In this document: positions 13,897 through 26,717 of the stretch, piece by piece
Layout of the letters: every line of letters begins with the position of its first letter
Numbering within the stretch: position 1 is the first letter of the stretch
Source of the DNA: Candidatus Latescibacterota bacterium
Lineage (GTDB): Bacteria; Latescibacterota; UBA2968; UBA8231
Direction of reading: 5' to 3'
DNA: 64,000 bases
NCBI GenBank assembly: GCA_965200315.1
Contig: OZ241362.1
Location: forward strand, 192,001-256,000
The notes under the pieces: generated by a model
What the model was told of the DNA's origin: nothing
What the model saw: the letters and a program-made list of their open reading frames with translations, nothing else
Database searches by the model: none
Translations under genes and position numbers: made by a program

Positions 13897-14730
13897 CTAA
13901 TGCCCGTGGATGGTGCTAGATTCAGCGCAATACAGGGCATAGGCGAGGCCAATTCCCACGAGCAAGGATGCGATGAGCTTGCCGCGATCGTGGCTGTGGA
14001 AGTGGATCTCCGGCAGCAGGTCGCTCAAGGCAATGCACAGGAACGCGCCGGCCGCAAAGGACAGCACATAGCCGACGAGCGTCCCTTCTTCCGGGCCGAG
14101 CAATTCCACCCCCCCGAAGCTGGCCAGTGCCACCAAAGGGCACAGCACGGCAAATCCGACATTGGCCCCGGCTCGGACGCGCTGGCCGTGCCCGGCGGAT
14201 TTCATCATGCCGATGATGGAGTACGCGTCGAGCGGCTTGTGCAGCAAAATGGCGAGGAATACCCCTAGCCCCGCCCATGCGACGTCGTTATCATGCAGCG
14301 GCCCCATCCTCATGCTGGCCCCCAGCGCGATCCCTTCAGTCACCGTATGCACCCCTAGGCCGAGGGCCACGCCGAACAAACTCCGCGAATGGCCCCCACC
14401 GTGCCCTCGGCGATCGTACAGGTCGCTCGCTTCGCTGCTGAAGTCGTGCTGGTGAAAGTGAAAGATCCGCAGCAAGAAAATCATCATGACCATGCCCAAG
14501 ACCATCCATCCCAGTGCTTTTTCTACCATCTCAGGCCCGGCCATGAAGAGGCTGTGAGGGAGCAGGTGAAACATGGCGATGCCGAGGATGAAGCCGGCCA
14601 CTAAACTCATCACGATCTGGGTGCGCGTGTGCGTCATGGTGCCCAAGGCCGCTAGTTTCCCGCCGAGCAAGGACGCGGCAAAGATGGCGGCTGAATATGC
14701 CGACAAAACGAGTAGAGCGTTGGAGTCCAT
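13897..14730 (-). CDS. ZIP family metal transporter (copy A)
   Basis: 'HTVTEG', 'LLHKPLD', His-rich loop, 'DLLPEIHFHSHD'. Confidence 0.9.
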   Translation of the reverse strand: MDSNALLVLSAYSAAIFAASLLGGKLAALGTMTHTRTQIVMSLVAGFILGIAMFHLLPHSLFMAGPEMVEKALGWMVLGMVMMIFLLRIFHFHQHDFSSEASDLYDRRGHGGGHSRSLFGVALGLGVHTVTEGIALGASMRMGPLHDNDVAWAGLGVFLAILLHKPLDAYSIIGMMKSAGHGQRVRAGANVGFAVLCPLVALASFGGVELLGPEEGTLVGYVLSFAAGAFLCIALSDLLPEIHFHSHDRGKLIASLLVGIGLAYALYCAESSTIHGH

Positions 14731-14868
14731 GATAGCTAGGGCCACAAACTAGCCGAGCAGGGCGGCGTCATGGACGCGATCTTGTTCGGTGCGAGAGGGT
14801 TTTATATACATACAAAGTCCAAAGTCGCAATCGTCATTTCCTCATATCATGGTACAGGAGGGCAAGCG

Positions 14869-15872
14869 ATGCACCTAGAACCCAATGAAAGAATGAGACT
14901 CCGGGAAGCTACGGCCATTATTGTAGCAGGTGGCGTCACAAACAGCATACTCGGCATCGTAAAAGTCGCCCTCGGCAGCGTTACCGGGTACCTACCCCTG
15001 ACTGCTTCAGGACTCCACTCGCTGTCGGACATTGTATCCGATGTCATCGCTTGGGTGGCCGTGCGGATGGGAGTGCGGTCCGAGCAACAGGGCGAGGATG
15101 TGCGGTTCCACTACGGCCGCCGGCGGATTGAAACCCTCCTGTCGTTTTTTGCCGCATTCCTGCTCGCGTTTGTGAGTGTGGAACTGATTCTGGATGCTTT
15201 CGGCTATCACGGGCACGGTCATGGGGTGTCCACAACAGCTATTCACGAACAAGCGGAAAGCCACGGCGACCACGAGCACGAGCAGGGGGGGTAGGTCATT
15301 TGTTCTTTCTCGTCTGCGCGGTAATCCTCGCTTCAGTGCTCGCCAAGGAAATACTGTTCCGCGCGACGCGGCGCAAGGGCGTCCGCCTGAACAGCCCCAT
15401 GCTAATCGCGAAAGCATGGCATCACCGGGCCGATTCCATCAGTGCCCTCGCAGTCCTGCTGAGCATTTTCGTTTCGTCCTATTTTCCGGCCTTCGCGTTG
15501 ATCAACCAAGTCACCACGGTCGTGATTGCCGGCCTAATCCTGCACAGTGCTTGGGAGGTTGGAAGCAACGCGGTCAAAGAGCTAATAGATTTCGCGCCCT
15601 CGCTAGAGACGATAGCCCTAATCGAAGAGATGGCGGAAGAGGTACAAGGCGTGACATTTACGCACAGTATTCGCATACGGTCTATGGGGGGTGCCCTGTA
15701 TGTTGAATTAACAGCGGAAACCGACCCGAATCTCACGGTAGCAGAAGGGTACGCCATCGTTAAACAGATCCGCGAGACGGTTAAGAATAAGGTCCCCAAT
15801 GTGATTGACGTCACCACCTTGCTAACCCCCAAAGGCGAATACGTCCGGCAGTTTCTGGGGTCGGAAACATAG
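14869..15872 (+). pseudogene. Cation diffusion facilitator split by a frameshift in a G7 run (15285-15291)
   Basis: N-half has 'HSLSD', 'FHYGRRRIE' and a His loop; C-half has 'AWHHRAD' and the dimerisation domain; one extra G joins the frames. Confidence 0.8.
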
Positions 15873-15893
15873 AGCAGGCTGACGCCCGGCGGG

Positions 15894-17123
15894 TCAACTG
15901 CTTCCACGTTGGTCGCTATGGGTGGACCGGAGGCGGATATTGAGTAGCATATCTTCGTAGCCGCTGCGCAGAGCACCGGCGCGGAAGCGCCAGATGATCA
16001 GGGCGATGAGGAGCAAAGCGCTGCCCCATTGCAGGAACTGAACGGCCGGCGCAGGGGAGGCGTCGAGGTTCACGGGAATCGCCAGACCAGCAGCGAGAAG
16101 CAGCACATCGATGGCGATGCCCAAGACGACCGTAACCGCGAGGACGGCGGCTACGTAGATGGATGCGAAGCGGGTGCCAAACTGGCTGACGATGATGGCG
16201 ATCGTGCCCGTGTTGGTGGCCGGGCCAGTCATCAGAAAAATCAGTGCCGCGCCGGGGCTGACTCCTTTGACCACGAGCGCGGCGGCGATTGGAGTACTGG
16301 CGGATGCGCAGATATAGAGAGGAATGCCGATCAGCACCATGACCGGATAGGATAGCCAGCGGGCATACTCATTTGCCATCAGGTCGCTCGGAATCGCCAG
16401 AAAGAGTACGCCGCCCAGCACGACTCCCACCAGCAGCGCAAAGAGAATGTCGTCTGCTATCTCAATGAAGCCATAGCGAAAGATGTGCTTGACCAGCTTT
16501 GTGAAGTCCAAATCCCGATCGTCGGTGGATGAATTCCACCGGCCTGCGGCCATCCCCTTCAACCAGTTGACCAGTAAGACCTTCAGTTGCGAAAGGCTAA
16601 CGTAGCAATCATCCCGGTCGGCGATGAGCGATTGGTGATGCTCGTGGTCGCAGGCGTGGCAGGCGTCGCGCTCGCTCGCTTTGGCTTCATCTCGGTCGTC
16701 TCTTATCAGTCCGATGCAAAAGATACCGGCGACGACCGCGGTGATGAAGCTGATGACGGGCCGGACGATGGCAACGATAGGTCCGAAAAAGGCGTTAGTG
16801 ACTAAAATCGAGTCTGCGCCGGTCTCTGGTGCGGTGATCAAGAAAGACATGCAGGCCGAACGGGACGCCCCCTTATTGCGCATCTCAGCCACCACAGGTA
16901 CAACCGAGCAACTGCACAGCGGCACGGGGACGCCGATGGCCGAACTCATGGTGACGGATTTTAGGCTATCGTCGCGGAGCCAGCGGAGAATGGCCTGACG
17001 GGAGACAAACACGTGGATCAGGCCAGAGAGGAACAGCCCCAGCAAAAGCATGGGGGCTAGCAAGAGGAAGGATGACCAGAGGAAGTCAAAAAAGCCGGTC
17101 AGTATTCCAAGAGATTCGGCCAC
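15894..17123 (-). CDS. SO_0444-like/ArsP-type metal permease (copy A)
   Basis: 'GVPVPLCSCSVVP', 'APETGADS', 'PLYICASASTP', 'GPATN'. Confidence 0.85.
   Translation of the reverse strand: MAESLGILTGFFDFLWSSFLLLAPMLLLGLFLSGLIHVFVSRQAILRWLRDDSLKSVTMSSAIGVPVPLCSCSVVPVVAEMRNKGASRSACMSFLITAPETGADSILVTNAFFGPIVAIVRPVISFITAVVAGIFCIGLIRDDRDEAKASERDACHACDHEHHQSLIADRDDCYVSLSQLKVLLVNWLKGMAAGRWNSSTDDRDLDFTKLVKHIFRYGFIEIADDILFALLVGVVLGGVLFLAIPSDLMANEYARWLSYPVMVLIGIPLYICASASTPIAAALVVKGVSPGAALIFLMTGPATNTGTIAIIVSQFGTRFASIYVAAVLAVTVVLGIAIDVLLLAAGLAIPVNLDASPAPAVQFLQWGSALLLIALIIWRFRAGALRSGYEDMLLNIRLRSTHSDQRGSS
15925..17081. repeat. Left arm of a ~1.16 kb inverted repeat (partner 22018-23174)
   Basis: Reverse complement matches the right arm; about ten substitutions seen by eye. 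Confidence 0.9.
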
Positions 17124-17141
17124 TCAATAGCCTCCTGTGCG

Positions 17142-17170
17142 TTGAGATGCGACGAGTTTATTGCTATAAT
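17142..17170 (+). promoter_or_regulatory. sigma70 promoter for leader peptide 1
   Basis: TTGAGA-N17-TATAAT with extended -10 TG; 12 nt between the -10 box and ATG 17183. Confidence 0.7.
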
Positions 17171-17182
17171 TAGCCAAAGGTC

Positions 17183-17497
17183 ATGCTAACGCGCAAAACG
17201 GATATCTCGACCAACTCGGCAGCCTCGTTGGCCCTGCTGGCACTGACAGTGCTCTTTGCGGCTGTAATCAGCGGTCTCCCCTTCAGCCACCAGCTTTTCC
17301 ACGATAGTCTCGTCGAGCCTGAAAACTGTCCGGCCTACCTGTTGCAGAGTAGCCTATCGCTCCTTTTTGGGGGCTTGGTGCTCGCGCTCGTGGTGCTGAA
17401 TGCCTCTGAGCCAAATCCGTCCCCTCTGCGCACGGTACCGCTACATCTTTTTTTTCCTCGCTTTACCCATCTCAACCGAGGCCCGCCCCGGTGCTAG
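17183..17497 (+). CDS. DUF2946-like leader/arrest peptide 1 (CPAY ... RGPP)
   Basis: Hydrophobic N-terminus, His cluster, 'ENCPAY', C-terminal 'NRGPPRC'; precedes a metal-binding lipoprotein. Confidence 0.75.
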   Translation: MLTRKTDISTNSAASLALLALTVLFAAVISGLPFSHQLFHDSLVEPENCPAYLLQSSLSLLFGGLVLALVVLNASEPNPSPLRTVPLHLFFPRFTHLNRGPPRC

Positions 17498-17498
17498 C

Positions 17499-17517
17499 GC
17501 ATCCACGCTGTGGATGC
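17499..17517 (+). promoter_or_regulatory. Hairpin just after the leader 1 stop
   Basis: GCATCCAC-gct-GTGGATGC; identical copy at 18998-19016; followed by a C/U-rich tract. Confidence 0.6.
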
Positions 17518-17572
17518 CCTCTCCATATCCATTTCGCATACCATTAACTTCCCGTTCTGTGCGCAACGCTTA

Positions 17573-17685
17573 GAAGCCGTTTGAAAACCCGTCGGGCCGC
17601 TTTGCGGAACGGCCATTTTTCTCGGGCAAAATGCCCTCGATCCCAGCGGTTTGAGAGACCCAACCCGGAATTTTCAGATCGCTTC
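17573..17685. mobile_element. 113-bp MITE with TTA target duplication
   Basis: TIRs GAAGCCGTTTGAAAA and revcomp GAAGCGATCTGAAAA (12/15); TTA at 17570-17572 and 17686-17688; absent from the paralogous region near 19065-19075. Confidence 0.8.
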
Positions 17686-17730
17686 TTAGGGAAGTGCGCG
17701 TGGACGGCCAAACCATTGGAGACTAGCACC

Positions 17731-18255
17731 ATGTTTAAGAGCATAGCTGCGTTAAGTATCTTCGCCCTCGTCCTCTTTGCTAGCTGCGGCGACGACAACC
17801 CCGTCGGCGACGACCACGCCGAAGAACACGCCGAGGCTGTCGGCCTGATCGTGCGCGATAGCGGCGAGGAGATCGTCCGCGTTGAAAGCGGTCAGGTGAC
17901 CGGCGAGATTGAAGTCGGCCACGGCAAGGAAACCGCCCTGCTGTCTGTGCGCTTTATCGCCGAAGATGGCGACCTCTTCACCCCCCACGAAGAAGATGGC
18001 TTTGCCCTTGACTGGGAAATTGCCGACGAGAGCATCGCCGAAGTCGAGCATCACGCCGAGGACGGGGCTTGGGCTTTTCACATCCTCGGCCTAGAGGAAG
18101 GCGAGACCACCATCCGCATAAAAATCAACCACGAAGGCCACGCCGATTTCGTCTCGCTGGAAATCGAGATTCACGTCAGCGAGGACGGTCCCGGTGAGGA
18201 ACACGAAGAACACGATGAGCACGATGAGCACGATGAGGAAGAGGAAAGCGATTAG
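17731..18255 (+). CDS. His/Glu-rich lipoprotein 1, putative metal-binding
   Basis: Lipobox FASC, 'DDHAEEHAEA', 'HEGHADF', tail HEEHDEHDEHDE. Confidence 0.8.
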   Translation: MFKSIAALSIFALVLFASCGDDNPVGDDHAEEHAEAVGLIVRDSGEEIVRVESGQVTGEIEVGHGKETALLSVRFIAEDGDLFTPHEEDGFALDWEIADESIAEVEHHAEDGAWAFHILGLEEGETTIRIKINHEGHADFVSLEIEIHVSEDGPGEEHEEHDEHDEHDEEEESD

Positions 18256-18285
18256 ACCCACTGCGGTCTTTCGTATGTAAAAGCG

Positions 18286-18318
18286 GCGCGGGACCGGACA
18301 CAAGCACCGGTCCCGCGC
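18286..18318 (+). promoter_or_regulatory. Conserved GC-rich stem-loop after lipoprotein 1
   Basis: GCGCGGGACCGG-9nt-CCGGTCCCGCGC; covarying homologue at 19660-19692. Confidence 0.65.
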
Positions 18319-18429
18319 ACTTATGTCAAGTGCCTAGGTACACGCCAGTAGGGTTTTTCTTGGGAGCGCGGGACAGAGGCCCGCGCACTTAGGGCGATAC
18401 CAAAAAACGCCCACCCAAGCCAAGGGTCG

Positions 18430-18618
18430 GGTACTTAGCAAGGTCAATTGGATAGCCGACAGACAAAAGCCACAGGCCGCAGAATCTGGCCCCGGCTGCT
18501 TTAGAAGCTCGAACTCGCACTCGGCCTAGCAGTAGGTTCCGCTTGGGGACCAGACTGGCTCGCTAACCGGGCACGTGATCGACGCGGAAAGCGGCTAATC
18601 CGTCGAGTGGACATTGCC
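18430..18618 (+). pseudogene. Relic of a TonB-dependent receptor 5' end
   Basis: Aligns by eye with 19691-19850 (DQTGSLTGHVIDAESG* vs DRTGALAGHVINAESGQ); contains stops and frameshifts. Confidence 0.7.
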
Positions 18619-18647
18619 TAAAAAAGGCAAGCCGCTGGGGGCTGGGG

Positions 18648-18676
18648 TTGCGTTTTTTTTGCCGGACCACTAAAAT
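18648..18676 (+). promoter_or_regulatory. sigma70 promoter, predicted leaderless transcript for leader peptide 2
   Basis: TTGCGT-N17-TAAAAT with 8 nt before ATG 18685; no SD sequence. Confidence 0.6.
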
Positions 18677-18684
18677 CAAAAATC

Positions 18685-18996
18685 ATGCTAACGCGCAAAA
18701 CGGACATCTCGATAGGCTCGGCGTCCTCGCTGGCCCTGCTAGTGCTGACCGTGCTCTTTGCGGCTGTAAGCGGCCTACCCTTCGGCCACCAGCTTTGCCA
18801 CGAGAGCCACATCGAGCCTGAGAACTGCCCGGCTTGCCTGTTGCAGAGCGGTCTATCGCTCCTTTTTGGGGGCTTAGCGCTCGCGCTCGTGGTGCTGAAT
18901 GCCTCTGAGCCAAATCCGTCCGCTCTGCGCACAGTACCGTTACCTCTTTTTTCTCCTCGCTTTACCCATCTCAACCGAGGCCCGCCCCGGTGCTAG
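18685..18996 (+). CDS. DUF2946-like leader/arrest peptide 2 (CPAC ... RGPP)
   Basis: 'HQLCHESHIEPENCPAC' and 'NRGPPRC'; upstream of lipoprotein and TonB receptor. Confidence 0.8.
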   Translation: MLTRKTDISIGSASSLALLVLTVLFAAVSGLPFGHQLCHESHIEPENCPACLLQSGLSLLFGGLALALVVLNASEPNPSALRTVPLPLFSPRFTHLNRGPPRC

Positions 18997-19114
18997 TGCA
19001 TCCACGCTGTGGATGCCCCTCTCCTATCCAATTCGCGTACCATTAAATTCCCGTTCTGCGCACAACGCCTAGGGAAAGTGTGCGTGGACGGTCAAACCAT
19101 TGGAGATTAGCACC

Positions 19115-19621
19115 ATGCTTAAAAGAAGTATGTCTGCCTTGAGCATTTTCGCCTTGGCCCTTTTTATTGCTAGCTGCGGCGACGACGACAATCCCGTCGA
19201 TCCCGACCACCATGATGATCATGCCGAGGCTATCGGCCTGATCGTGCGCGATAGCGGCACTGAAATTGTCCGCGTTGAAAGCGGCGAGGTGACCGGCGAG
19301 ATCGAAGTTGGCCACGGCAAGGAGACCGCCCTGCTGTCCGTGCGTTTTATCGCCGAAGATGGCGATCTCTTTACCCCAGACGAAGCCGATGATTACTCCC
19401 TCGCTTGGGAAATGGCCGACGAGAGCATCGCCGAAGTCGAGCAGCACACCGAGGACGGGGCTTGGAATTTTCACATCCTCGGCCTAGAGGAAGGCGAGAC
19501 TACTATCCGCATCAAGATCAACCACGAAGGCCACGTCGATTTCGTCTCGCCGGAGATTGAGATTCACGTCAGCGAGGACGGACCCGGTGAGGAACACGAC
19601 GAGCACGATGATGAAGGGTAA
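19115..19621 (+). CDS. His/Asp-rich lipoprotein 2
   Basis: Lipobox IASC, 'DHHDDHAEA'; close paralogue of 17731-18255. Confidence 0.8.
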   Translation: MLKRSMSALSIFALALFIASCGDDDNPVDPDHHDDHAEAIGLIVRDSGTEIVRVESGEVTGEIEVGHGKETALLSVRFIAEDGDLFTPDEADDYSLAWEMADESIAEVEQHTEDGAWNFHILGLEEGETTIRIKINHEGHVDFVSPEIEIHVSEDGPGEEHDEHDDEG

Positions 19622-19659
19622 AGCGGTTAGATCGGCTGCGGCCTTCATAGGTAAAAGCG

Positions 19660-19692
19660 ACACGGGACCGGAGACAAACTCCGGTCCCGTGT
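19660..19692 (+). promoter_or_regulatory. Stem-loop between lipoprotein 2 and the TonB receptor
   Basis: ACACGGGACCGGAG-acaaa-CTCCGGTCCCGTGT; no U-tract. Confidence 0.65.
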
Positions 19693-19709: not shown

Positions 19710-21929
19710 TTGAATAGCTGTCGGCTACTTTGGCAGTTGGCAGCCATCGTCGGCCTAGCCGGCGGTCCTGTTTGGGGCGACCGGACTGGCGCTCTAGCCG
19801 GCCATGTAATAAACGCCGAAAGCGGCCAACCCGTCGGCTGGACTACCATCGTCATCGAGGGGCTCGAACGGGTGCGTACTAGCGACGCCGAGGGGTATTT
19901 CTTCTTCGCCAACGTACCCGCTGGCCCGCACGTCCTGCAAAGCCTGCACGTCGGCTACCACGAGGCGCGCTTTGAAGTCGAGGTTGTCGCCGGGGACACC
20001 ACGCATGTCGATCTGGCTATCGGCCACGAATCTCTGCGCGTAGAGACGATTCTTGTCGAAGGCGAACACACGACCCCTGTTTCTCCACTCCAAGCCCCGG
20101 AAGTCGTCTTCAGCGGCAGCAAGCTGCGGCAGAATTTGAGCCGCACCATTGCCGAGACCATCGACTACGAGCCGGGCATTGCCCTGCGCTCAATGGGGCC
20201 GGCGCCCGCGCGGCCGGTGCTGCGCGGGCTGGGCGGCGACCGCTTGCTGATGGTCGAAGACGGCGAGCGCACCGGCGATTTGTCTGCCACCTCCTCGGAC
20301 CACGCGGTGGCCATCGAGCCGATGACCACCGAGCGCATTGAAATCGTGCGCGGCCCCCGCACCTTGCTCTACGGCTCCAATGCCTTGGCCGGGGTCGTCA
20401 ATGTGGTGCGAGGGTACGTGCCCTCCGAGCAGCCCGATGGCTCGGGGGGATCTGTGGCGTATCAGGGGGAGAGCGTCAATCGAGGTTTGTCGGGCGGCCT
20501 GATCCTCGAACAGGCGCTCGGCCCACTGGCCCTGCGCTTCGATAGCAGTCTGCGCAATGCCGACGATATTGCCTCGCCGCACGGAAAGCTCGTCAATACG
20601 GACATCCGCACGGGCAATGCCTCGGTCGGCCTGAGTCTGATTCGTCCTTGGGGGCACGTGGGCGCGTCTGGTAGCTTGTACACTTCCGACTACGGCATTC
20701 CCCCCGACCCAAAGGGTGGCCATCCACATGGCGTGTCCATTGATCTCCAGCGCCAGCACCTCGAAGGGCGCGGTGAAATTCTCACCGCGCCGGACTGGCT
20801 CCAGCGCCTAGAATTGCACCATTCGTTTTCGCGCTATCAGCACGGCGAATTCGAAGCGAGTGGCGATTTAGGGATGGAGTTCGGTGTGCTCACGCACAAC
20901 AGCGGTGCGCTGGCTCACCTAGATCGTATGGGGCCTTTTGCAAACGGTGCGATTGGCCTGTGGTACGAGTACCGCAATTATGCTGCGGCCGGGCTCAACT
21001 ATACGCCGCCGGCCGAGGAATACGCCGGTGCTTTGTTCGCGTACCAGGAGTGGGAGCATGGGCCTTGGGCGGCCAATGCGGCTTGGCGCGTTGACGCCCG
21101 CCGCGTCGAGCCGCGCGAGGAGCGCTATTCGCGCCGGGTCGGCCGCATCCAGATGCGCGACTTTGCCGGGATGTCGGCCGGTTTGTCCAATCACTATCGC
21201 GCCAGTTCGACCTTGACCTTGGGCACGACCTTGATGCGCACCTTTCGCGCTCCCGGCATCGAAGAGCTGTTCTCCGAAGGGCCGCATTTGGCCGCCTATT
21301 CGTACGAGGTGGGCAATGGGGCCCTCGACAGCGAACGCGGCCTAGGACTGGAGCTGTTCGCCGACTACCACCTCGAAGAAGGCCATGTACACTTGGCCGT
21401 CTTTCGCAACGCGATCGATGGGTACATTTTCCCCAAGAACAGCGGCGAGCGCAGTTTGCGGCGTGCCGATCTCTTTCTCTATCAGACTGTGGGGGAGCGC
21501 GTCCTCATGCACGGGGCCGAAGCCAACTTCGACTGGCATCTAGCGGAGCCTTGGAAAGTGGCCGGTACTCTCAGCTATGTGCGTGGCCACCTCACTGATC
21601 TCGACGACGAACCTCTGCCGCGTCTGCCGCCCCTGCAAGGGCACCTGGCCCTGACTTGCGAACCCACTGAGGCGCTGAGTGCGACTATTGACGTGCGCTT
21701 GGCTGCGGAACAGGACCAAGTCGGCGAGTTTGAAGAGCCTACGGAAGGCTATGCAGTGCTGGATCTTTCGAGCCAGTACTACGTGCAGTGGGGGGGCCGT
21801 CTGCACACCTTCGCCCTGACCTTGGAAAACGCCACGGACGCGGTGTACCGCAATCACCTCAACCGCGTCAAAGAGATCCTGCCCGAGCCCGGCCGCAACC
21901 TGCGCCTTTTGCACAAGATATTCTTCTGA
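19710..21929 (+). CDS. TonB-dependent receptor, ZnuD-like, with N-terminal CarboxypepD_reg domain
   Basis: 'RPVLRGL', 'SSDHAV', 'IEIVRGPRTLLYGSNALAGVVN', 'EELFSEGPH', 'EPGRN', terminal Phe; start (TTG 19710 or GTG 19689) uncertain. Confidence 0.9.
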   Translation: MNSCRLLWQLAAIVGLAGGPVWGDRTGALAGHVINAESGQPVGWTTIVIEGLERVRTSDAEGYFFFANVPAGPHVLQSLHVGYHEARFEVEVVAGDTTHVDLAIGHESLRVETILVEGEHTTPVSPLQAPEVVFSGSKLRQNLSRTIAETIDYEPGIALRSMGPAPARPVLRGLGGDRLLMVEDGERTGDLSATSSDHAVAIEPMTTERIEIVRGPRTLLYGSNALAGVVNVVRGYVPSEQPDGSGGSVAYQGESVNRGLSGGLILEQALGPLALRFDSSLRNADDIASPHGKLVNTDIRTGNASVGLSLIRPWGHVGASGSLYTSDYGIPPDPKGGHPHGVSIDLQRQHLEGRGEILTAPDWLQRLELHHSFSRYQHGEFEASGDLGMEFGVLTHNSGALAHLDRMGPFANGAIGLWYEYRNYAAAGLNYTPPAEEYAGALFAYQEWEHGPWAANAAWRVDARRVEPREERYSRRVGRIQMRDFAGMSAGLSNHYRASSTLTLGTTLMRTFRAPGIEELFSEGPHLAAYSYEVGNGALDSERGLGLELFADYHLEEGHVHLAVFRNAIDGYIFPKNSGERSLRRADLFLYQTVGERVLMHGAEANFDWHLAEPWKVAGTLSYVRGHLTDLDDEPLPRLPPLQGHLALTCEPTEALSATIDVRLAAEQDQVGEFEEPTEGYAVLDLSSQYYVQWGGRLHTFALTLENATDAVYRNHLNRVKEILPEPGRNLRLLHKIFF

Positions 21930-21972
21930 GAATTCGTCTGGATTCACTCACCGGACTATGGGATTGCACAGA

Positions 21973-23229
21973 ATGACCTTTGATTTTCTTGGAATACTAA
22001 CCAGTTTTTTTGCCGTTCTCTGGTCATCCTTCCTCTTGCTAGCCCCCATGCTTTTGCTGGGGCTGTTCCTCTCTGGCCTGATCCACGTGTTTATCTCCCG
22101 TCAGGCCATTCTCCGCTGGCTCCGCGACGACAGCCTAAAATCCGTCACCATGAGTTCGGCCATCGGCGTCCCCGTGCCGCTGTGCAGTTGCTCGGTTGTA
22201 CCTGTGGTGGCCGAGATGCGCAATAAGGGGGCGTCCCGTTCGGCCTGCATGTCTTTCTTGATCACCGCACCAGAGACCGGCGCAGACTCGATTTTAGTCA
22301 CTAACGCCTTTTTCGGACCTATCGTTGCCATCGTCCGGCCCGTCATCAGCTTCATCACCGCGGTCGTCGCCGGTATCTTTTGCATCGGACTGATAAGAGA
22401 CGACCGAGATGAAGCCAAAGCGAGCGAGCGCGACGCCTGCCACGCCTGCGACCACGAGCATCACCAATCGCTCATCGCCGACCGGGATGATTGCTACGTC
22501 AGCCTTTCGCAACTGAAGGTCTTACTGGTCAACTGGTTGAAGGGGATGGCCGCAGGCCGGTGGAATTCATCCACCGACGATCGGGATTTGGACTTCACAA
22601 AGCTGGTCAAGCACATCTTTCGCTATGGCTTCATTGAGATAGCAGACGACATTCTCTTTGCGCTGCTGGTGGGAGTCGTGCTGGGCGGCGTACTCTTTCT
22701 GGCGATTCCGAGCGACCTGATGGCAAATGAGTATGCCCGCTGGCTATCCTATCCGGTCATGGTGCTGATCGGCATTCCTCTCTATATCTGCGCATCCGCC
22801 AGTACTCCAATCGCCGCCGCGCTCGTGGCCAAAGGAGTCAGCCCCGGCGCGGCGCTGATTTTTCTGATGACTGGCCCGGCCACCAACACGGGCACGATCG
22901 CCATCATCGTCAGCCAGTTTGGCACCCGCTTCGCATCCATCTACGTAGCCGCCGTCCTCGCGGTTACGGTCGTCTTGGGCATCGCCATCGATGTGCTGCT
23001 TCTCGCTGCTGGTCTGGCGATTCCCGTGAACCTCGACGCCTCCCATGCGCCGGCCGTTCAGTTCCTGCAATGGGGCAGCGCTTTGCTCCTCATCGCCCTG
23101 ATCATCTGGCGCTTCCGCGCCGGTGCTCTGCGCAGCGGCTACGAAGATATGCTGCTCAATCTTCGCCTCCGGTCTAGCACGGCCGATCGGGACCTGTCAG
23201 CGCGAGACCTCAGCAGTGGCAAGTCTTAA
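21973..23229 (+). CDS. SO_0444-like/ArsP-type metal permease (copy B)
   Basis: Near-identical to 15894-17123. Confidence 0.85.
   Translation: MTFDFLGILTSFFAVLWSSFLLLAPMLLLGLFLSGLIHVFISRQAILRWLRDDSLKSVTMSSAIGVPVPLCSCSVVPVVAEMRNKGASRSACMSFLITAPETGADSILVTNAFFGPIVAIVRPVISFITAVVAGIFCIGLIRDDRDEAKASERDACHACDHEHHQSLIADRDDCYVSLSQLKVLLVNWLKGMAAGRWNSSTDDRDLDFTKLVKHIFRYGFIEIADDILFALLVGVVLGGVLFLAIPSDLMANEYARWLSYPVMVLIGIPLYICASASTPIAAALVAKGVSPGAALIFLMTGPATNTGTIAIIVSQFGTRFASIYVAAVLAVTVVLGIAIDVLLLAAGLAIPVNLDASHAPAVQFLQWGSALLLIALIIWRFRAGALRSGYEDMLLNLRLRSSTADRDLSARDLSSGKS
22018..23174. repeat. Right arm of the ~1.16 kb inverted repeat
   Basis: See 15925-17081. Confidence 0.9.
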
Positions 23230-23258
23230 CCCGAACTCACGTTAAAGGAGGATTCTAT

Positions 23259-24680
23259 ATGAACACGCCTCGAAAAGTACCTGTTACCATCCTCACCGGC
23301 TTCCTCGGCTCTGGCAAGACGACCCTACTCAACCGGATCTTGAGTGAGGAGCACGGCAAGCGCATTGCCGTGATCGAGAACGAGTATGGGGAAGTCGGCA
23401 TCGATCAGGCACTTGTCATCAACGCTGACGAGGAGATATTTGAGATGTCGAACGGCTGCATCTGCTGCACGGTGCGCGGAGACCTGATTCGCGTGCTCGG
23501 CAATCTCATGAAGCGCCGCGACAAGTTCGACTATGTGTTGGTGGAAACCACAGGGCTCGCCGATCCTGGGCCAGTCGCTCAGACGTTCTTCATGGACGAC
23601 GAGATTCGTGCGGAGTTCTCGCTTGACGGGATCGTCACGCTCGTCGATGTAGCCCACATTGAGCAGCAGCTTGGCCGAAGCGACGAAAGCACAGAGCAAA
23701 TCGCGTTCGCAGACATCCTCGTGCTCAACAAGACGGACCTCGTCAACGGCGAAGCACTCGACAGACTCGAATCTCGGCTCCGAGACATGAACCGAATGGC
23801 GCGAGTCGTGCGCAGCGAGCGAGCGAACGTCTCCGTCGATACTGTACTCAATCTCGACGCCTTCAACTTGGACCAGGTGCTCGAGCGTCGCCCCACCTTC
23901 CTCGAGCCGGAGTATCCGTTTGAATGGACTGGAGTCTATTCGCTCGATATGGGCCGCTACGAACTCAGCCTCGCCGATGGACCTGATCCGACGATGTCGC
24001 TCGTCGTCGTGTCCGACCAGGGCACGGATGACGCTGCCCTCCGTGAGGGTGCGGAGTGGTGTGTGCGGCGGTACGCCGAACCTGCGGAGCTCATTCGCCC
24101 GGGGGAAGAGATTCCGGTCGGAAAGCATCTGAATCTCCGACTCGATTCCCCAGGGCGCAAGTCGTTCTTCTTGGAGGTCGATACGCAGGTGCGGGTTGGC
24201 CTCTACGCCCAGCACATCGCGGAGGAGTTCGATCTCCAACTGATGAACGCGGATGGAGCGACAATCAGGCTAGAGGATAGTCCGCGCTCCAAGCTGGCCT
24301 CCACAGAGCCCGGCACCCTGCGCATCAAGGGAGCGGTGGTTGCCGCCGAGGTCGAGCGAACCTGGGTCGCACAGCACGAGCACGACGACGAGGTGGGCTC
24401 GATCGCGATCGAGAGGGACGGCGACGTCGATCTCAACAGGCTCAACGCCTGGCTTGGCAAACTGCTCGGTGAGCGCGGGGTGGACATCTTCCGAATGAAG
24501 GGCTTCATAAGCCTCGCAGGTGAGTCGCATCGCTTCGTCTTCCAGGGGGTTCACATGCTCTTTGACGGCCAGCCGGATCGCGAATGGGGGGACGCACCCC
24601 GCCGCAGTCAGCTCGTCTTCATCGGCCGCAACCTCGATGAGCAGAGCATGCGGCAGGGGTTTGAAGCATGTTTGATTTAA
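23259..24680 (+). CDS. COG0523/CobW-family G3E GTPase metallochaperone
   Basis: 'GFLGSGKTT', 'GCICC', 'ETTG', 'NKTD', CobW_C 'IFRMKG...QGVH...LVFIGR'. Confidence 0.95.
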   Translation: MNTPRKVPVTILTGFLGSGKTTLLNRILSEEHGKRIAVIENEYGEVGIDQALVINADEEIFEMSNGCICCTVRGDLIRVLGNLMKRRDKFDYVLVETTGLADPGPVAQTFFMDDEIRAEFSLDGIVTLVDVAHIEQQLGRSDESTEQIAFADILVLNKTDLVNGEALDRLESRLRDMNRMARVVRSERANVSVDTVLNLDAFNLDQVLERRPTFLEPEYPFEWTGVYSLDMGRYELSLADGPDPTMSLVVVSDQGTDDAALREGAEWCVRRYAEPAELIRPGEEIPVGKHLNLRLDSPGRKSFFLEVDTQVRVGLYAQHIAEEFDLQLMNADGATIRLEDSPRSKLASTEPGTLRIKGAVVAAEVERTWVAQHEHDDEVGSIAIERDGDVDLNRLNAWLGKLLGERGVDIFRMKGFISLAGESHRFVFQGVHMLFDGQPDREWGDAPRRSQLVFIGRNLDEQSMRQGFEACLI

Positions 24681-25708
24681 GTGTCGGCAGCCCGAGGGGT
24701 GCTCTTCGCCGGGGCTGGTCTGCGGCGGTTGGCGACTACGCTATCGCCGGGGGTTGGAGCCTACGCGGTGAGGTGCTGATGGTCGGCGAGGCTGCAGGTG
24801 GCGTCTACGCATTCGACGGCAAGTCTGGCGCGGCCGCTTGGGAGCGACGCGGGGTTCATGAAGGCGGTGTGCTCGCAGTGGCGATCCACCCAAGCGGAAC
24901 CGCGTTCGCTACGGCCGGCCAGGACAGCCGAGTCTTAATCTGGAGTGCCGCCGAAGGTCAGGTAAGCCGGGCTATCGACGTCGGAAGCGGTTGGGTAGAA
25001 AACGTGGCGTGGTCGCCGGACGGCCAATGGTTAGCGGCCTCCTGCTCTCGGCAGGTTCGCACGTATGGTGCGGACGGCGCGGAGGTTTGGCGATCGGATG
25101 ATCATCCCAGCACCGTCAGCGCGATCGCCTGGTCGAGCGTAGGGGAGCTGGCTACGGCCTGTTACGGTCGAGTGACGTTCTTCGACGCGCCTACTGGCGA
25201 GCTTCGCCAGAAGCTGGAGTGGCAGGGATCCTTGGTGTCGATGGTACTGAGCTCGGACGGGGATATCGTGGCCTGCGGCAGCCAGGACAACTCGGTGCAC
25301 TTCTGGCGTCGCTCCACGGAGCAGGACTCCATGATGTCAGGATATCCTGCCAAGCCGTCGGCCCTGGCTTTCGATGACACCGGCACCCTCTTGGCCACCG
25401 GCGGAGGGGAGGCGGTGACGGTCTGGAGTTTCCATGGAAGTGGTCCCGAAGGTACGCGGCCCGGCGTTTTAGAGCTTCATGTTCAACCCGTCACGACGCT
25501 TGCCTTCGCTCCCAACGCGATGCGCTTGGCATCGGGAGGCCGCGATGGGACCGTGGTTGTGTGGTCGCTTCAGAGAGATGGAGAAGGCGAGCTGATAGGG
25601 GCCGCGGTTGTGGCGGGCGCAGTGGCCGAATTGTACTGGCGGCCAGACGGGCGTGCGCTTGCCGCGCTCGACGCGCGGGGTGGCGTGACGGTTTGGCGGA
25701 TAGGATGA
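24668..25708 (+). CDS. WD40 repeat protein coupled to COG0523
   Basis: Repeated 'ATAGQD', 'WSPDG', 'LASGGRDG' blades. Confidence 0.85.
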   Translation: MFDLSVGSPRGALRRGWSAAVGDYAIAGGWSLRGEVLMVGEAAGGVYAFDGKSGAAAWERRGVHEGGVLAVAIHPSGTAFATAGQDSRVLIWSAAEGQVSRAIDVGSGWVENVAWSPDGQWLAASCSRQVRTYGADGAEVWRSDDHPSTVSAIAWSSVGELATACYGRVTFFDAPTGELRQKLEWQGSLVSMVLSSDGDIVACGSQDNSVHFWRRSTEQDSMMSGYPAKPSALAFDDTGTLLATGGGEAVTVWSFHGSGPEGTRPGVLELHVQPVTTLAFAPNAMRLASGGRDGTVVVWSLQRDGEGELIGAAVVAGAVAELYWRPDGRALAALDARGGVTVWRIG

Positions 25709-25724
25709 ACAAAGCATAGTCATC

Positions 25725-26528
25725 ATGGATGCAAACGCTCTACTGGTTTTGTCGGCCTACTCAGCCGCCATCTTTGCCGCTTCCCTGCTCGGCGGCAAAT
25801 TGGCGACCTTGGGCACCATGACGCATACGCGCACTCAGATCGTGATGAGTCTCGTAGCCGGCTTCATCCTCGGCATCTCCATGTTTCACCTGCTACCCGA
25901 TAGCCTCGAGCACATTCCTGGACCTAGCGCCATGGAAAAAGCCATGGGATGGATGGTGTTAGGCATGGTGCTGATGATTCTCTTACAGCATATCTTTCAC
26001 TTTCACCAGCACGACTTCAGTCGCGAGGCGAGCGATCTGTATGATGACCACGGACACGGTGTCGTCCATGCGCCGAGTTTGTTCGGCGTTGCCCTCGGCC
26101 TAGGGGTGCATACCGCGACCGAAGGGATCGCGTTGGGTACCAGCATGAGGTTGGAATCGCCGTATGAAGACGGAGGCGCTTGGGCGGGACTAGGGGTATT
26201 CCTTGTCATTCTGCTGCACAAGCCGCTCGATGCGTACTCCATTGTCAGCATGATGAAGTACGCCGGTCACAGCCAGCGCGCCCGGACATGGACCAATGTT
26301 GGCTTTGCCATGCTGTGCCCGGTAGTGGCGCTGGCGATCTTTGGGGGGGTGGAATTGCTTGGCCCGGAAGAAGGGGCACTCGTCGGCTATGTGCTGTCCT
26401 TTGCGGCGGGCGTGTTTTTGTGCATTGCCTTGAGCGACCTGTTACCGGAGATCCATTTCCACAGCCACGATCGCGGCAAGCTCATCGTCTCCCTCCTCGT
26501 GGGAATCAGTCTCGCCTATATACTTTGA
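25725..26528 (+). CDS. ZIP family metal transporter (copy B)
   Basis: Paralogue of 13897-14730; the tail is shortened by a small deletion. Confidence 0.9.
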   Translation: MDANALLVLSAYSAAIFAASLLGGKLATLGTMTHTRTQIVMSLVAGFILGISMFHLLPDSLEHIPGPSAMEKAMGWMVLGMVLMILLQHIFHFHQHDFSREASDLYDDHGHGVVHAPSLFGVALGLGVHTATEGIALGTSMRLESPYEDGGAWAGLGVFLVILLHKPLDAYSIVSMMKYAGHSQRARTWTNVGFAMLCPVVALAIFGGVELLGPEEGALVGYVLSFAAGVFLCIALSDLLPEIHFHSHDRGKLIVSLLVGISLAYIL

Positions 26529-26555: not shown

Positions 26556-26608
26556 GGCTGCAACCTGCGCTTGCTGCACAAGGTATTCTTCTGAGAATTC
26601 GTCTGGAT
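26556..26608 (+). pseudogene. Relic of a TonB receptor 3' end plus downstream sequence
   Basis: ...CAACCTGCGCTTGCTGCACAAGGTATTCTTCTGAGAATTCGTCTGGAT closely matches 21891-21943. Confidence 0.75.
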
Positions 26609-26717
26609 CCACCGACATTATAGAGTTGCACAGGGCATAGCACACCAAACAGCTCTGTCCCGCGACCTCGGCAGTGGAGGAGATATGGTCGCCGAGCAGT
26701 AATTGAAATTGCCATCC

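Follow-up and report, generated by a model that had tools for sequence, protein, structure and literature searches.

Two tandem gene units in a metal-uptake locus of an uncultured Candidatus Latescibacterota bacterium each carry, ahead of a lipoprotein gene, a short open reading frame (ORF) with the anatomy of a metal-sensing arrest peptide. The window analysed here, a stretch of 64,000 nucleotides, comprises bases 192001-256000 of a single 5.36-Mb contig (genome completeness estimate 94.7%), and features lie on its plus strand unless stated otherwise. Unit 1 (17142-18255) and unit 2 (18648-19621) share the same order of parts: a promoter-like site, an ORF of 103 or 104 codons, an 8-bp hairpin, a C/U-rich tract, a strong GGAG Shine–Dalgarno (SD) sequence and the lipoprotein gene. 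We propose, with moderate confidence, that each unit is transcribed as a leaderless or nearly leaderless mRNA, that its first ORF encodes an arrest peptide of the CruR/CutF kind, and that an arrested ribosome unmasks the start of the next gene in the manner of SecM-secA and CutF-cutO. An earlier note, made from the sequence of this stretch alone, had described two tandem units with promoters 8-12 nt before the ATG, peptides of about 104 aa ending in RGPP, an identical hairpin, a C/U-rich tract and a His-rich lipoprotein; we found all of these elements in both units.

Nascent-chain sensing of metals has so far been demonstrated for copper alone, in CruR and CutF, and what appears to be new in this locus is a two-sensor, zinc-type version. 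A further novelty lies in the RNA: the last codons and stop of the leader pair with the nucleotides before the lipoprotein AUG, next to a CUCC:GGAG pairing, and this arrangement recurs with different sequences in distant relatives. Our literature searches on arrest peptides, zinc, TonB-dependent genes and upstream ORFs (uORFs) found no published zinc-linked arrest peptide. A 2025 survey reports RAPP/RGPP uORFs before TonB-related genes in many phyla and leaves signals and mechanisms open; it nowhere uses the word zinc (PMC12992588).

Anatomy and conservation of the leader peptides

Leader 1 (type B; 17183-17497; 104 aa; stop TAG 17495-17497) reads ...HQLFHDSL...CPAY...RGPPRC*, and leader 2 (type A; 18685-18996; 103 aa; stop TAG 18994-18996) reads HQLCHESH...CPAC...RGPPRC*; the peptides are identical at 88/104 positions (85%). 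The residues of interest in leader 2, whose numbering is used below, are H35, C38, H39, H42, C48-P-A-C51 and R98-G-P-P101. Leader 1, in its own numbering, has a first transmembrane (TM) helix at about 14-34, a loop H36-x3-H40...C49-P-A-Y52, a second TM helix at about 53-73 and a tail ...PRFTHLNRGPPRC. Hydropathy gives two peaks, the first (about 14-34) after R4 and K5, with charges of +2 (N-terminus), -3 (loop) and +4 (tail). An AlphaFold2 (AF2) model has helices at 13-38 and 49-73 and a disordered tail (predicted local distance difference test, pLDDT, 68). Both would fit a helical hairpin with N- and C-termini inside and the His/Cys loop outside.

Forty leader copies were extracted: the window supplied two, and 25 of 26 related loci (designated by L numbers) supplied the other 38, the locus left aside (L030) holding a 20-aa fragment. 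The frame is intact and begins with ATG in all 40. The ratio of nonsynonymous to synonymous substitution (dN/dS) is 0.38 within type B, 0.39 within type A and 0.47 between types; by region the minimum (0.22) falls in the C-terminal 15 codons, which hold the arrest segment, and the loop has 0.33. Changes in loop length are multiples of three codons, built of (E/G)SH repeats.

Sequence conservation is concentrated at the putative ligands and at the arrest motif. A leader profile searched against 1.84 billion representative proteins gave only 25 matches at E<=1e-3. The 23 leader relatives beyond the close group are likewise about 100 aa long and keep a common plan at 25-50% identity: a hydrophobic N-terminal helix, L-P-x-x-H-x3-H, C-P-x-[H/Y/..] eight residues past the second His, a second hydrophobic helix, and a tail R-[AG]-P-P followed mostly by 2-3 residues. 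H35, C48, P100 and P101 are invariant in close and distant relatives, with H39 and R98 almost as constant. Of the 92 close homologues, 86 carry R[GA]PP (RGPP 85, RAPP 1), and in 85 of these 86 a tail of exactly two residues follows. Among 20 distant relatives the motif reads RAPP in 14, RGPP in two, RPPP in two and KAPP in one, and the residues after it number 2-3 in 15 of the 19 that have it and 4-14 in the other four. The distance from Cys to Arg is 50 residues in 83/86 close members and in 15/19 distant members with the motif. Conservation of RGPP and CxxC among homologues had been named in the earlier note as a check on its reading; RGPP (85/92) and the first Cys passed it.

We also observed a T homopolymer in the codons for ...LFF/LFS... 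of both leaders (T8 at 17448-17455, T6 at 18947-18952). Several homologues (P0082, P0087-P0090) are frameshifted near it and lose RGPP, which could reflect sequencing error or real slippage.

The second half of the CxxC feature separates two paralogue types. Type B (F38/L42/Y51) accounts for 48 of the 92 close homologues and type A for 36, and four combine F38 with C51; position 51 is Y in 48, C in 40, G in three and H in one. The 20 distant relatives have H (9), Y (6), R (2), L (2) or A (1) at position 51, and none has a Cys at position 38 or 51 (0/20). Two-unit loci, comprising the window and 13 of 25 related loci, always place type B (HQLFH...CPAY) upstream of type A (HQLCH...H...CPAC), and two leader copies are present in 14/30 congeneric genomes. 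Single-copy loci carry CPAY (4), CPAG (2), CxxC variants (5) or CPVH (1), and contig ends truncate three loci (L016, L021 and L029). A DNA tree groups the 14 type-A copies in a single clade nested among type B with weak support (90/93, below the star threshold), and the leader pair of L027 clusters together, which suggests gene conversion.

Because no distant relative has Cys at 38 or 51, the Cys/His-rich type A is more likely to be the derived form. Type B is a conserved paralogue and not a decayed sensor. The earlier note's statement that unit 1 had lost two Cys and a His is therefore probably backwards, given the prevalence of type B, its dN/dS and the ligands of the distant relatives. Its natural sensor pair survives as two leaders with different ligand sets, not as 'intact versus altered'.

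Type A loops vary by 0-3 extra (E/G)SH tripeptides after HQLCH (P0014, P0016, P0020, P0022, P0024, P0028, P0031 and others). This repeat-length polymorphism falls in the putative metal-binding site, and the window copy is without extra repeats.

The peptides stand at the edge of DUF2946 (PF11162), the family of CruR and CutF. Leader 2 matched its hidden Markov model (HMM) over profile positions 55-117 with 18.0 bits (E=0.005; cut-off 23.7), and leader 1 gave no match at E<=1. Among 34 relatives, 13 match at E<=0.01, and only P0031 (25.7 bits) and P0028 (23.7 bits), both with long His repeats, reach the cut-off; one of the 23 distant relatives matches, at 19 bits. The anatomy, which the earlier note had likened to that of CruR and CutF, bears the comparison out. 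RGPP lies at 98-101 of 103 in leader 2 and two residues from the end in both leaders, a ruler of 50 residues leads from Cys to Arg, and hydropathy and AF2 predict an N-terminal export signal or N-in signal anchor followed by the His/Cys loop. The 46 residues between Cys motif and arrest motif compare with the 45 reported between CXXC and RAPP in CruR, where a tolerance of +/-1-2 is given (PMC9426467). Each leader also stands first in a metal operon, and the spacer that separates it from the following gene is long (233 and 118 nt for the two window units, 106-293 nt in relatives). As the features of CruR and CutF are only partly present, we treat the peptides as an unannotated outlying branch and not as certified members; they are probably outliers of DUF2946 of a kind that Pfam misses. 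The assignment to DUF2946 in the earlier note accordingly holds for ruler and arrest motif and falls short on profile score.

The leader is part of a module. Leader, lipoprotein and TonB receptor occur in this order in the window and 22/25 related loci, and lipoprotein or receptor is missing, broken or cut by a contig end in the second unit of L007, in L016 and in L022. Distant metagenome relatives also carry the leader-lipoprotein-receptor module. The family profile was found in 50/75 genomes of the same GTDB family and in 0/56 genomes of three other families of the class, and the nearest relatives of the window are metagenome-assembled genomes (MAGs) labelled Candidatus Latescibacterota or Gemmatimonadetes. 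Within the window's own genome the profile search finds the window copies only, and weak DUF2946 matches elsewhere (L001, L002, L004) contain no RAPP-type ORF. At L007:10001 the lipoprotein ORF that follows the second leader is truncated to 29 codons, with leader and receptor intact.

Proposed start masking by RNA structure and the predicted leaderless start

A consensus structure for the leader-lipoprotein spacer was derived from an alignment of 32 spacers, excluding seven with an inserted element and L024. It has four helices: P1, which joins the stop region to the 9 nt 5' of the lipoprotein AUG; P2, the hairpin after the stop; P3, an anti-SD helix (CUCCA:UGGAG); and P4, which is internal. 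In the minimum free energy (MFE) fold of unit 1 the P1 5' arm GGUGCUAG (17490-17497), made of the last two codons and stop, pairs with the 3' arm CUAGCACC (17723-17730); in unit 2 GGUGCUAGU (18989-18997; last two codons, stop and one base) pairs with AUUAGCACC (19106-19114). P2, a 19-nt hairpin with an 8-bp stem and 3-nt loop, has the same sequence in both units (GCATCCAC-GCT-GTGGATGC; 17499-17517, starting 2 nt after the stop, and 18998-19016); it is a loop-deleted version of a longer hairpin in relatives, in which compensatory changes are found. The anti-SD CUCC (17521-17524 and 19021-19024) opens the C/U-rich tract (17518-17574 and 19017-19062; 46-57 nt, C 35-39%, G 11-12%) and pairs with the SD GGAG (17718-17721 and 19102-19105). 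SD, P1 3' arm and AUG follow one another in the lipoprotein start regions (17718-17733, AUG at 17731; 19102-19117, AUG at 19115).

Standard pairs occupy 98% of the cells of the consensus structure, compared with 25-51% after sliding the partners by 1-3 columns, and the anti-SD helix is paired in 100% of cells. Changes on both sides were seen at seven pairs, a number reached by 0/500 shuffles, and in the most distant locus of the alignment a U-A pair of P1 is swapped to C-G. Single-sequence MFE folds link stop to start region in 6/7 cases (L033, L034, L037, L038 and both window units), and GGAG is paired to a CUCC-type element in all six. L037, essentially identical in sequence to L029 of the alignment, does not count as independent. 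The helix arms of the distant metagenome relatives L033, L034 and L038 are unrelated in sequence to those of the window; in L034 (MFE fold z = -4.6) UUCUAAGCAUCUGCA, which includes the leader stop, is joined by 15 linking pairs to a stretch including the lipoprotein AUG. Insertions of a repeat element all lie in loops of the structure (7/7, by eye), six in the P2 loop and that of the window in the P4 loop. No Rfam family was found over the leaders or the leader-lipoprotein spacers.

As with arrest peptides of the SecM, MifM, VemP and CutF type, the downstream SD and start are sequestered in this structure, and its 5' arm is predicted to lie within reach of an arrested ribosome. The ribosomal mRNA channel extends some 16 nt from the first base in the P site. 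When Pro100 occupies the P site and Pro101 the A site, the footprint would end at 18997, exactly the end of the P1 5' arm, with P2 outside. This placing of the codons follows the toeprint of CruR, with the third and fourth motif codons in the P and A sites (PMC12992588). A leader tail of exactly two residues fits the need to keep the stop-region arm within the footprint. The earlier note had brought the hairpin and C/U-rich tract together with Rho; the tract is present, and the conserved RNA feature is the long-range stop-to-start helix with the anti-SD.

The promoter-like sites suggest an unusual start for the leaders themselves. That of unit 1 (17142-17170; TTGAGA-17-TATAAT, TG-extended) has 11/12 matches to consensus and a -10 ending 12 nt before the ATG; that of unit 2 (18648-18676; TTGCGT-17-TAAAAT) has 8/12 matches and a -10 ending 8 nt before the ATG. 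A consensus scan missed the unit 2 promoter, yet its form is kept in most related copies, and the sequence upstream of unit 1 is unlike that of every related locus. A -35/-10 pair ending 8-13 nt before the ATG is present in 37/40 leader copies (8 nt in 22, 9 in six, 12 in three and 13 in six). GGAG, GAGG or AGGA was found at -15..-4 of the leader ATG in 0/40 copies, in contrast to the lipoprotein genes, every one of which has GGAG 9 nt before its AUG. From the promoter spacing and the lack of an SD, we predict that leader mRNAs are leaderless or carry a 5' untranslated region of at most about 5 nt. We saw no conserved Zur-box-like palindrome by eye in the promoter alignments, for which no formal motif search was run.

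Contigs from RNA libraries (four runs of one study) span the leader, spacer and lipoprotein junctions (17468-18104, 17380-18074 and 18813-19658). As these contigs are ambiguous with respect to DNA, we did not use them as evidence for transcription start sites or co-transcription.

Proposed mechanism, the sensed metal and alternative explanations

In the proposed mechanism, the nascent leader would insert in the inner membrane as an N-in helical hairpin, and the loop H35-x3-H39...C48-x2-X51 would emerge on the periplasmic side of the translocon, at its mouth, at the moment when the ribosome meets R98-G-P-P101. The 50-residue ruler should roughly equal the span of exit tunnel plus translocon, which would bring the ligands to the periplasm as the ribosome reaches RGPP. 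The ribosome would then arrest, its P and A sites occupied by the two Pro codons, and cover the last two codons and stop, i.e. the P1 5' arm, freeing the 9 nt before the lipoprotein AUG. Loss of P1 would weaken the neighbouring CUCC:GGAG anti-SD helix (4-5 bp), so that the His-rich lipoprotein gene is translated, and the operon of the ZnuD-like receptor behind unit 2 would follow through coupling of translation and transcription. On release of the arrest, termination two codons later would let the structure re-close and mask the start, and Rho might act on the C-rich untranslated RNA as a second layer like that of CruR.

The controlled genes look like uptake genes, and the most likely effect of the metal is therefore to end the arrest and shut the system down, as happens with CruR. 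Metal on the periplasmic loop, probably Zn(II), might release the arrest through folding or a pulling force. The different ligand sets of the leaders (His2-Cys-Tyr versus His3-Cys3 plus variable (E/G)SH repeats) suggest two thresholds or two metal specificities. We would tentatively extend this reading to natural zinc-operated force switches in which loop folding or insertion of the second helix pulls on the chain, the pair acting as a two-threshold or two-metal controller that replaces Zur; this extension is possible but doubtful. If true, zinc sensing by an arrest peptide would here be met for the first time, in a natural parallel to the engineered ADR1a-SecM experiment, in which Zn-dependent folding of a Cys2His2 domain releases an R-A-G-P arrest (PMC4571824). 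That study also describes TM-helix insertion as another source of pulling force and an exit tunnel of about 30 residues. The principle proposed here, a His/Cys site whose folding with zinc pulls and releases arrest, is that of ADR1a-SecM; the engineered system folds in the exit tunnel, 24-26 residues from the peptidyl-transferase centre, whereas the natural loop would lie 50 residues off, across the membrane.

Zinc is our best guess for the sensed metal, drawn from gene context. The leaders do head a metal operon, as the earlier note held: the receptor (19710-21929; N-terminal CarboxypepD_reg domain, putative TTG start) is most like ZnuD and is accompanied by a COG0523 GTPase (23259-24680), a ZIP transporter (25725-26528) and a CDF gene. 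The best solved relative of the receptor is Neisseria ZnuD (PDB 4RDR; 1.3e-34), the copper channel OprC coming second (5.9e-14), and its best NCBIfam model is also ZnuD (NF038289). COG0523, six-helix permease and ZIP are typical zinc-starvation genes of Zur-regulated clusters (PMC4176598). Such clusters differ from the present one in that no Zur box was recognised by eye here and no gene of the FUR family (Fur/Zur) was detected at E<=0.001 in the 5.36-Mb genome; control appears to be post-transcriptional. Copper-specific genes (CopA, CopZ, multicopper oxidase, PCuAC, PepSY_TM) were not found in 13.9-26.5 kb, and the family-wide ligand set of His, His, Cys and His/Tyr fits Zn better than Cu(I). 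For the zinc-type switch of the earlier note, the metal is suggested by gene context only.

Several observations weigh against the proposal. Both window peptides lie below the DUF2946 cut-off. The sequences that supply the covariation are close kin, so that the shuffle control overstates the support; 4/9 pairs in P1 and 4/5 in the SD helix never vary, and the arms of both are also constrained by coding and by SD spacing. L040, one of five distant loci, folds without a stop-to-start helix, and a comparison of duplex energies, with the stop region set against sliding windows, failed to discriminate, the query being GC-rich and promiscuous, with the exception of L034, where 0/268 windows were as good. 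The second leaders L006:10001 and L008:10001 are without a -35, the post-lipoprotein hairpin abutting a -10-like CAAAAT, and may depend on read-through and be poorly translated. The RNA-library contigs also bridge the divergent promoter (16800-17409), so that they may be DNA carry-over, and give no transcript ends. As for the metal, the receptor scores far below the ZnuD cut-off (176.1 bits against 950, short of membership) and the permease family is labelled Cu/Zn efflux, which makes both the metal and the direction of transport tentative assignments. A FUR-family gene is present in 7/18 congeners searched and absent from 11/18; as congeners with the gene also carry two leaders, we do not tie its absence to the leaders.

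An arrangement in which CruR-type attenuation does the main work, the stalled ribosome blocking Rho until release leads to termination, with RNA structure secondary, is compatible with start unmasking but seems unlikely as the principal mode. CruR does work in this way (PMC9426467), Rho is encoded in the genome (672.8 bits), as is EF-P, and the tract has the composition described above, the C/G ratio peaking at about 3.1 in 60-nt windows over the leader 3' end. Part of this C-rich tract, however, is paired in the conserved structure (anti-SD and P4), the unpaired tract is short (about 45-55 nt), and the invariant helices that mask SD and start would be superfluous for Rho alone. The conserved stop-to-start helix and anti-SD point first to SD unmasking.

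The same switch might instead sense copper (or cobalt or nickel), or metal might prolong the arrest as in CutF; we consider this equally improbable. The characterised relatives CruR and CutF all sense copper, type A has three Cys, OprC is the second-best solved relative of the receptor, and the neighbouring permease family is named for Cu/Zn efflux. The receptor is nevertheless far nearer ZnuD than OprC, the cluster holds COG0523, ZIP and CDF with no copper-specific gene, and the ligands suit Zn above Cu(I).

Less probable again is that the small ORFs encode stable two-helix membrane proteins of metal uptake, in which RGPP is tolerated or merely slows the ribosome and the helix serves translational coupling. 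Conserved TM helices and the His/Cys loop would suit such a protein, and DUF2946 genes are reported to share cofitness with a copper receptor in mutant screens of Pseudomonas, which do not separate a protein from a cis role (10.1101/072470). The strongest constraint, on the other hand, falls on the C-terminal tail that is predicted to be disordered (dN/dS 0.22), a fixed 50-residue ruler and 2-residue tail make no obvious sense in a mature protein, and RGPP is reported to be the most avoided bacterial tetrapeptide except at the C-termini of small uORFs (PMC12992588). We give almost no credence to the conserved stretch being a non-coding RNA or DNA element with fortuitous ORFs, which might have accounted for the low synonymous divergence (pS ~0.2) and for the ORF 3' end doubling in part as a helix arm, given the open frame in 40/40 copies, loop indels in threes, dN/dS < 0.5, protein motifs kept at 25-50% identity in distant relatives and no Rfam match over leader or spacer.

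Arrest with start unmasking, the reading we prefer, places the locus beside known systems while setting it apart from each. CruR (Bp2923; DUF2946/PF11162) of Bordetella pertussis, upstream of BfrG/CrtA (PMC9426467, PMC12914433), is likewise a small exported or membrane-anchored uORF heading a metal-uptake operon with a TonB receptor; it shares the ligand motif at a fixed distance (45 there, 46 here) from an R-x-P-P lying 2-3 residues from the end, the long spacer to the next gene, and C-rich RNA with Rho. The present leaders differ from CruR in falling below the Pfam cut-off, in having RGPP for RAPP, in a family-wide sensor H-x3-H...C-P-x-[H/Y] with CxxC in one derived paralogue only, and in a second hydrophobic helix after the sensor. 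Their locus differs in that the first controlled gene is a His-rich lipoprotein and not the receptor, the neighbours are of Zn rather than Cu type with no PepSY_TM gene, a start-masking RNA structure stands instead of or besides Rho termination, and the leaders show a predicted leaderless start and a tandem duplication.

CutF (DUF2946) of Rhodobacter capsulatus, upstream of cutO, is similarly a nascent, co-translationally exported sensor with an SD-shielding structure opened by the stalled ribosome; the stalled ribosome is reported to unmask the SD of the next gene (10.1101/2025.02.05.636593). CutF has CXXXC and a PPP stall counteracted by EF-P, whereas the leaders have C-x2-[C/Y] and R-G-P-P, which sets them outside the CutF subtype; RGPP is reported to be EF-P-resistant (PMC12992588). 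CutF is switched on with copper for detoxification, while uptake genes here would lead one to expect the opposite sign, and the masking helix here is built from the leader's own stop-codon region. ApdA, ApdP, ApcA and SecM share a C-terminal R-[AG]-P-P core in a small protein with a localisation signal (PMC12992588) and a downstream start in a structure opened by the arrested ribosome, but monitor Sec/YidC and precede secretion genes, as opposed to the metal-ligand loop and metal-uptake genes found here. RGPP is described as the strongest and least context-dependent arrest motif tested, more robust than RAPP, and RAPP/RGPP uORFs as enriched upstream of TonB-related genes (PMC12992588).

The locus is compact, and its sequence gives stall site, ruler length, masking helix and ligand residues directly. 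It offers a natural sensor pair that differs at three ligand positions and is suited to swaps, among zinc-type genes of a genome where Zur was not detected. It bears on whether periplasmic metal binding passes mechanically via the translocon to the peptidyl-transferase centre. The lineage is represented by an uncultured MAG, and experiments would therefore need a surrogate host or a cell-free system.

Gene neighbourhood and origin of the tandem units

The tandem units are flanked by a divergent SO_0444-family permease gene (15894-17123, minus strand) and the receptor gene. Lipoprotein 1 (17731-18255; 174 aa) has a lipobox ...A-S-C-G-D-D, a conserved His and an acidic, His-rich tail, and matched no Pfam or NCBIfam family. 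Lipoprotein 2 (19115-19621; 168 aa) has the same lipobox and a His-rich tail and is predicted to form an Ig-like beta-sandwich with disordered His/Asp-rich ends (pLDDT 77); a fold search brought up nothing beyond generic sandwiches of Ig-like or S-layer type (best E ~1e-4), with no clue to a metal site. Behind the receptor lie a second SO_0444-family permease (21958-23229), above the family cut-off and carrying the label Cu/Zn efflux, the COG0523 GTPase, a WD40 protein (24668-25708) and the ZIP transporter, and the order of this downstream cluster is the same in related loci.

Upstream and divergent are the second copies of the permease (a 98% identical inverted repeat) and ZIP, together with the CDF gene. 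The last is split into two ORFs (14770-15294 and 15300-15872) by a stop at the end of the His-rich loop, the N-terminal half matching Cation_efflux positions 3-92 and the C-terminal half 106-198 plus ZT_dimer. The gene may be truly split or a pseudogene, or the stop may be a sequencing error.

Units 1 and 2 are 84-89% identical in DNA, in blocks. Between them lies a decayed 5' end of a TonB-receptor gene (18440-18612) with two insertions and an in-frame stop, a duplication scar which indicates that the tandem pair arose by duplicating promoter, leader, lipoprotein and receptor start. Unit 1 differs from unit 2 in an inserted repeat of about 116 nt resembling a miniature inverted-repeat transposable element (17574-17689), bounded by terminal inverted repeats and by a TTAG duplication, which sits between C/U tract and lipoprotein gene inside the loop of helix P4. 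Seven diverged copies of it (71-84% identity) occur elsewhere in the genome. The element, at about 112 nt, is also present in the spacers of L005 (both units), L007:10001, L012:11174, L022:7745 and L025:1547.

GC-rich hairpins follow both lipoprotein genes. The first (18286-18318) has a 12-bp stem without a U tract, and the stem of the second (19660-19692) differs from it by paired changes. Across copies these hairpins have 12-14-bp stems, no U tract and compensatory differences. The region has a weak Rfam match to tpke11 (38 bits against a cut-off of 43, E=5.9e-6), which is below threshold.

The metal cluster is bordered by a large inverted duplication (13939-17117 versus 21982-26519), in which the permease copies are 98% identical over 1193 nt and the ZIP transporter copies 85-87%; the divergent layout around it is also found in most related loci. 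In addition, 57 nt after the ZIP gene (26556-26612) match the receptor gene's 3' end (21891-21947) at 89% identity, and may be the remnant of a second receptor gene such as L012 has at that place.

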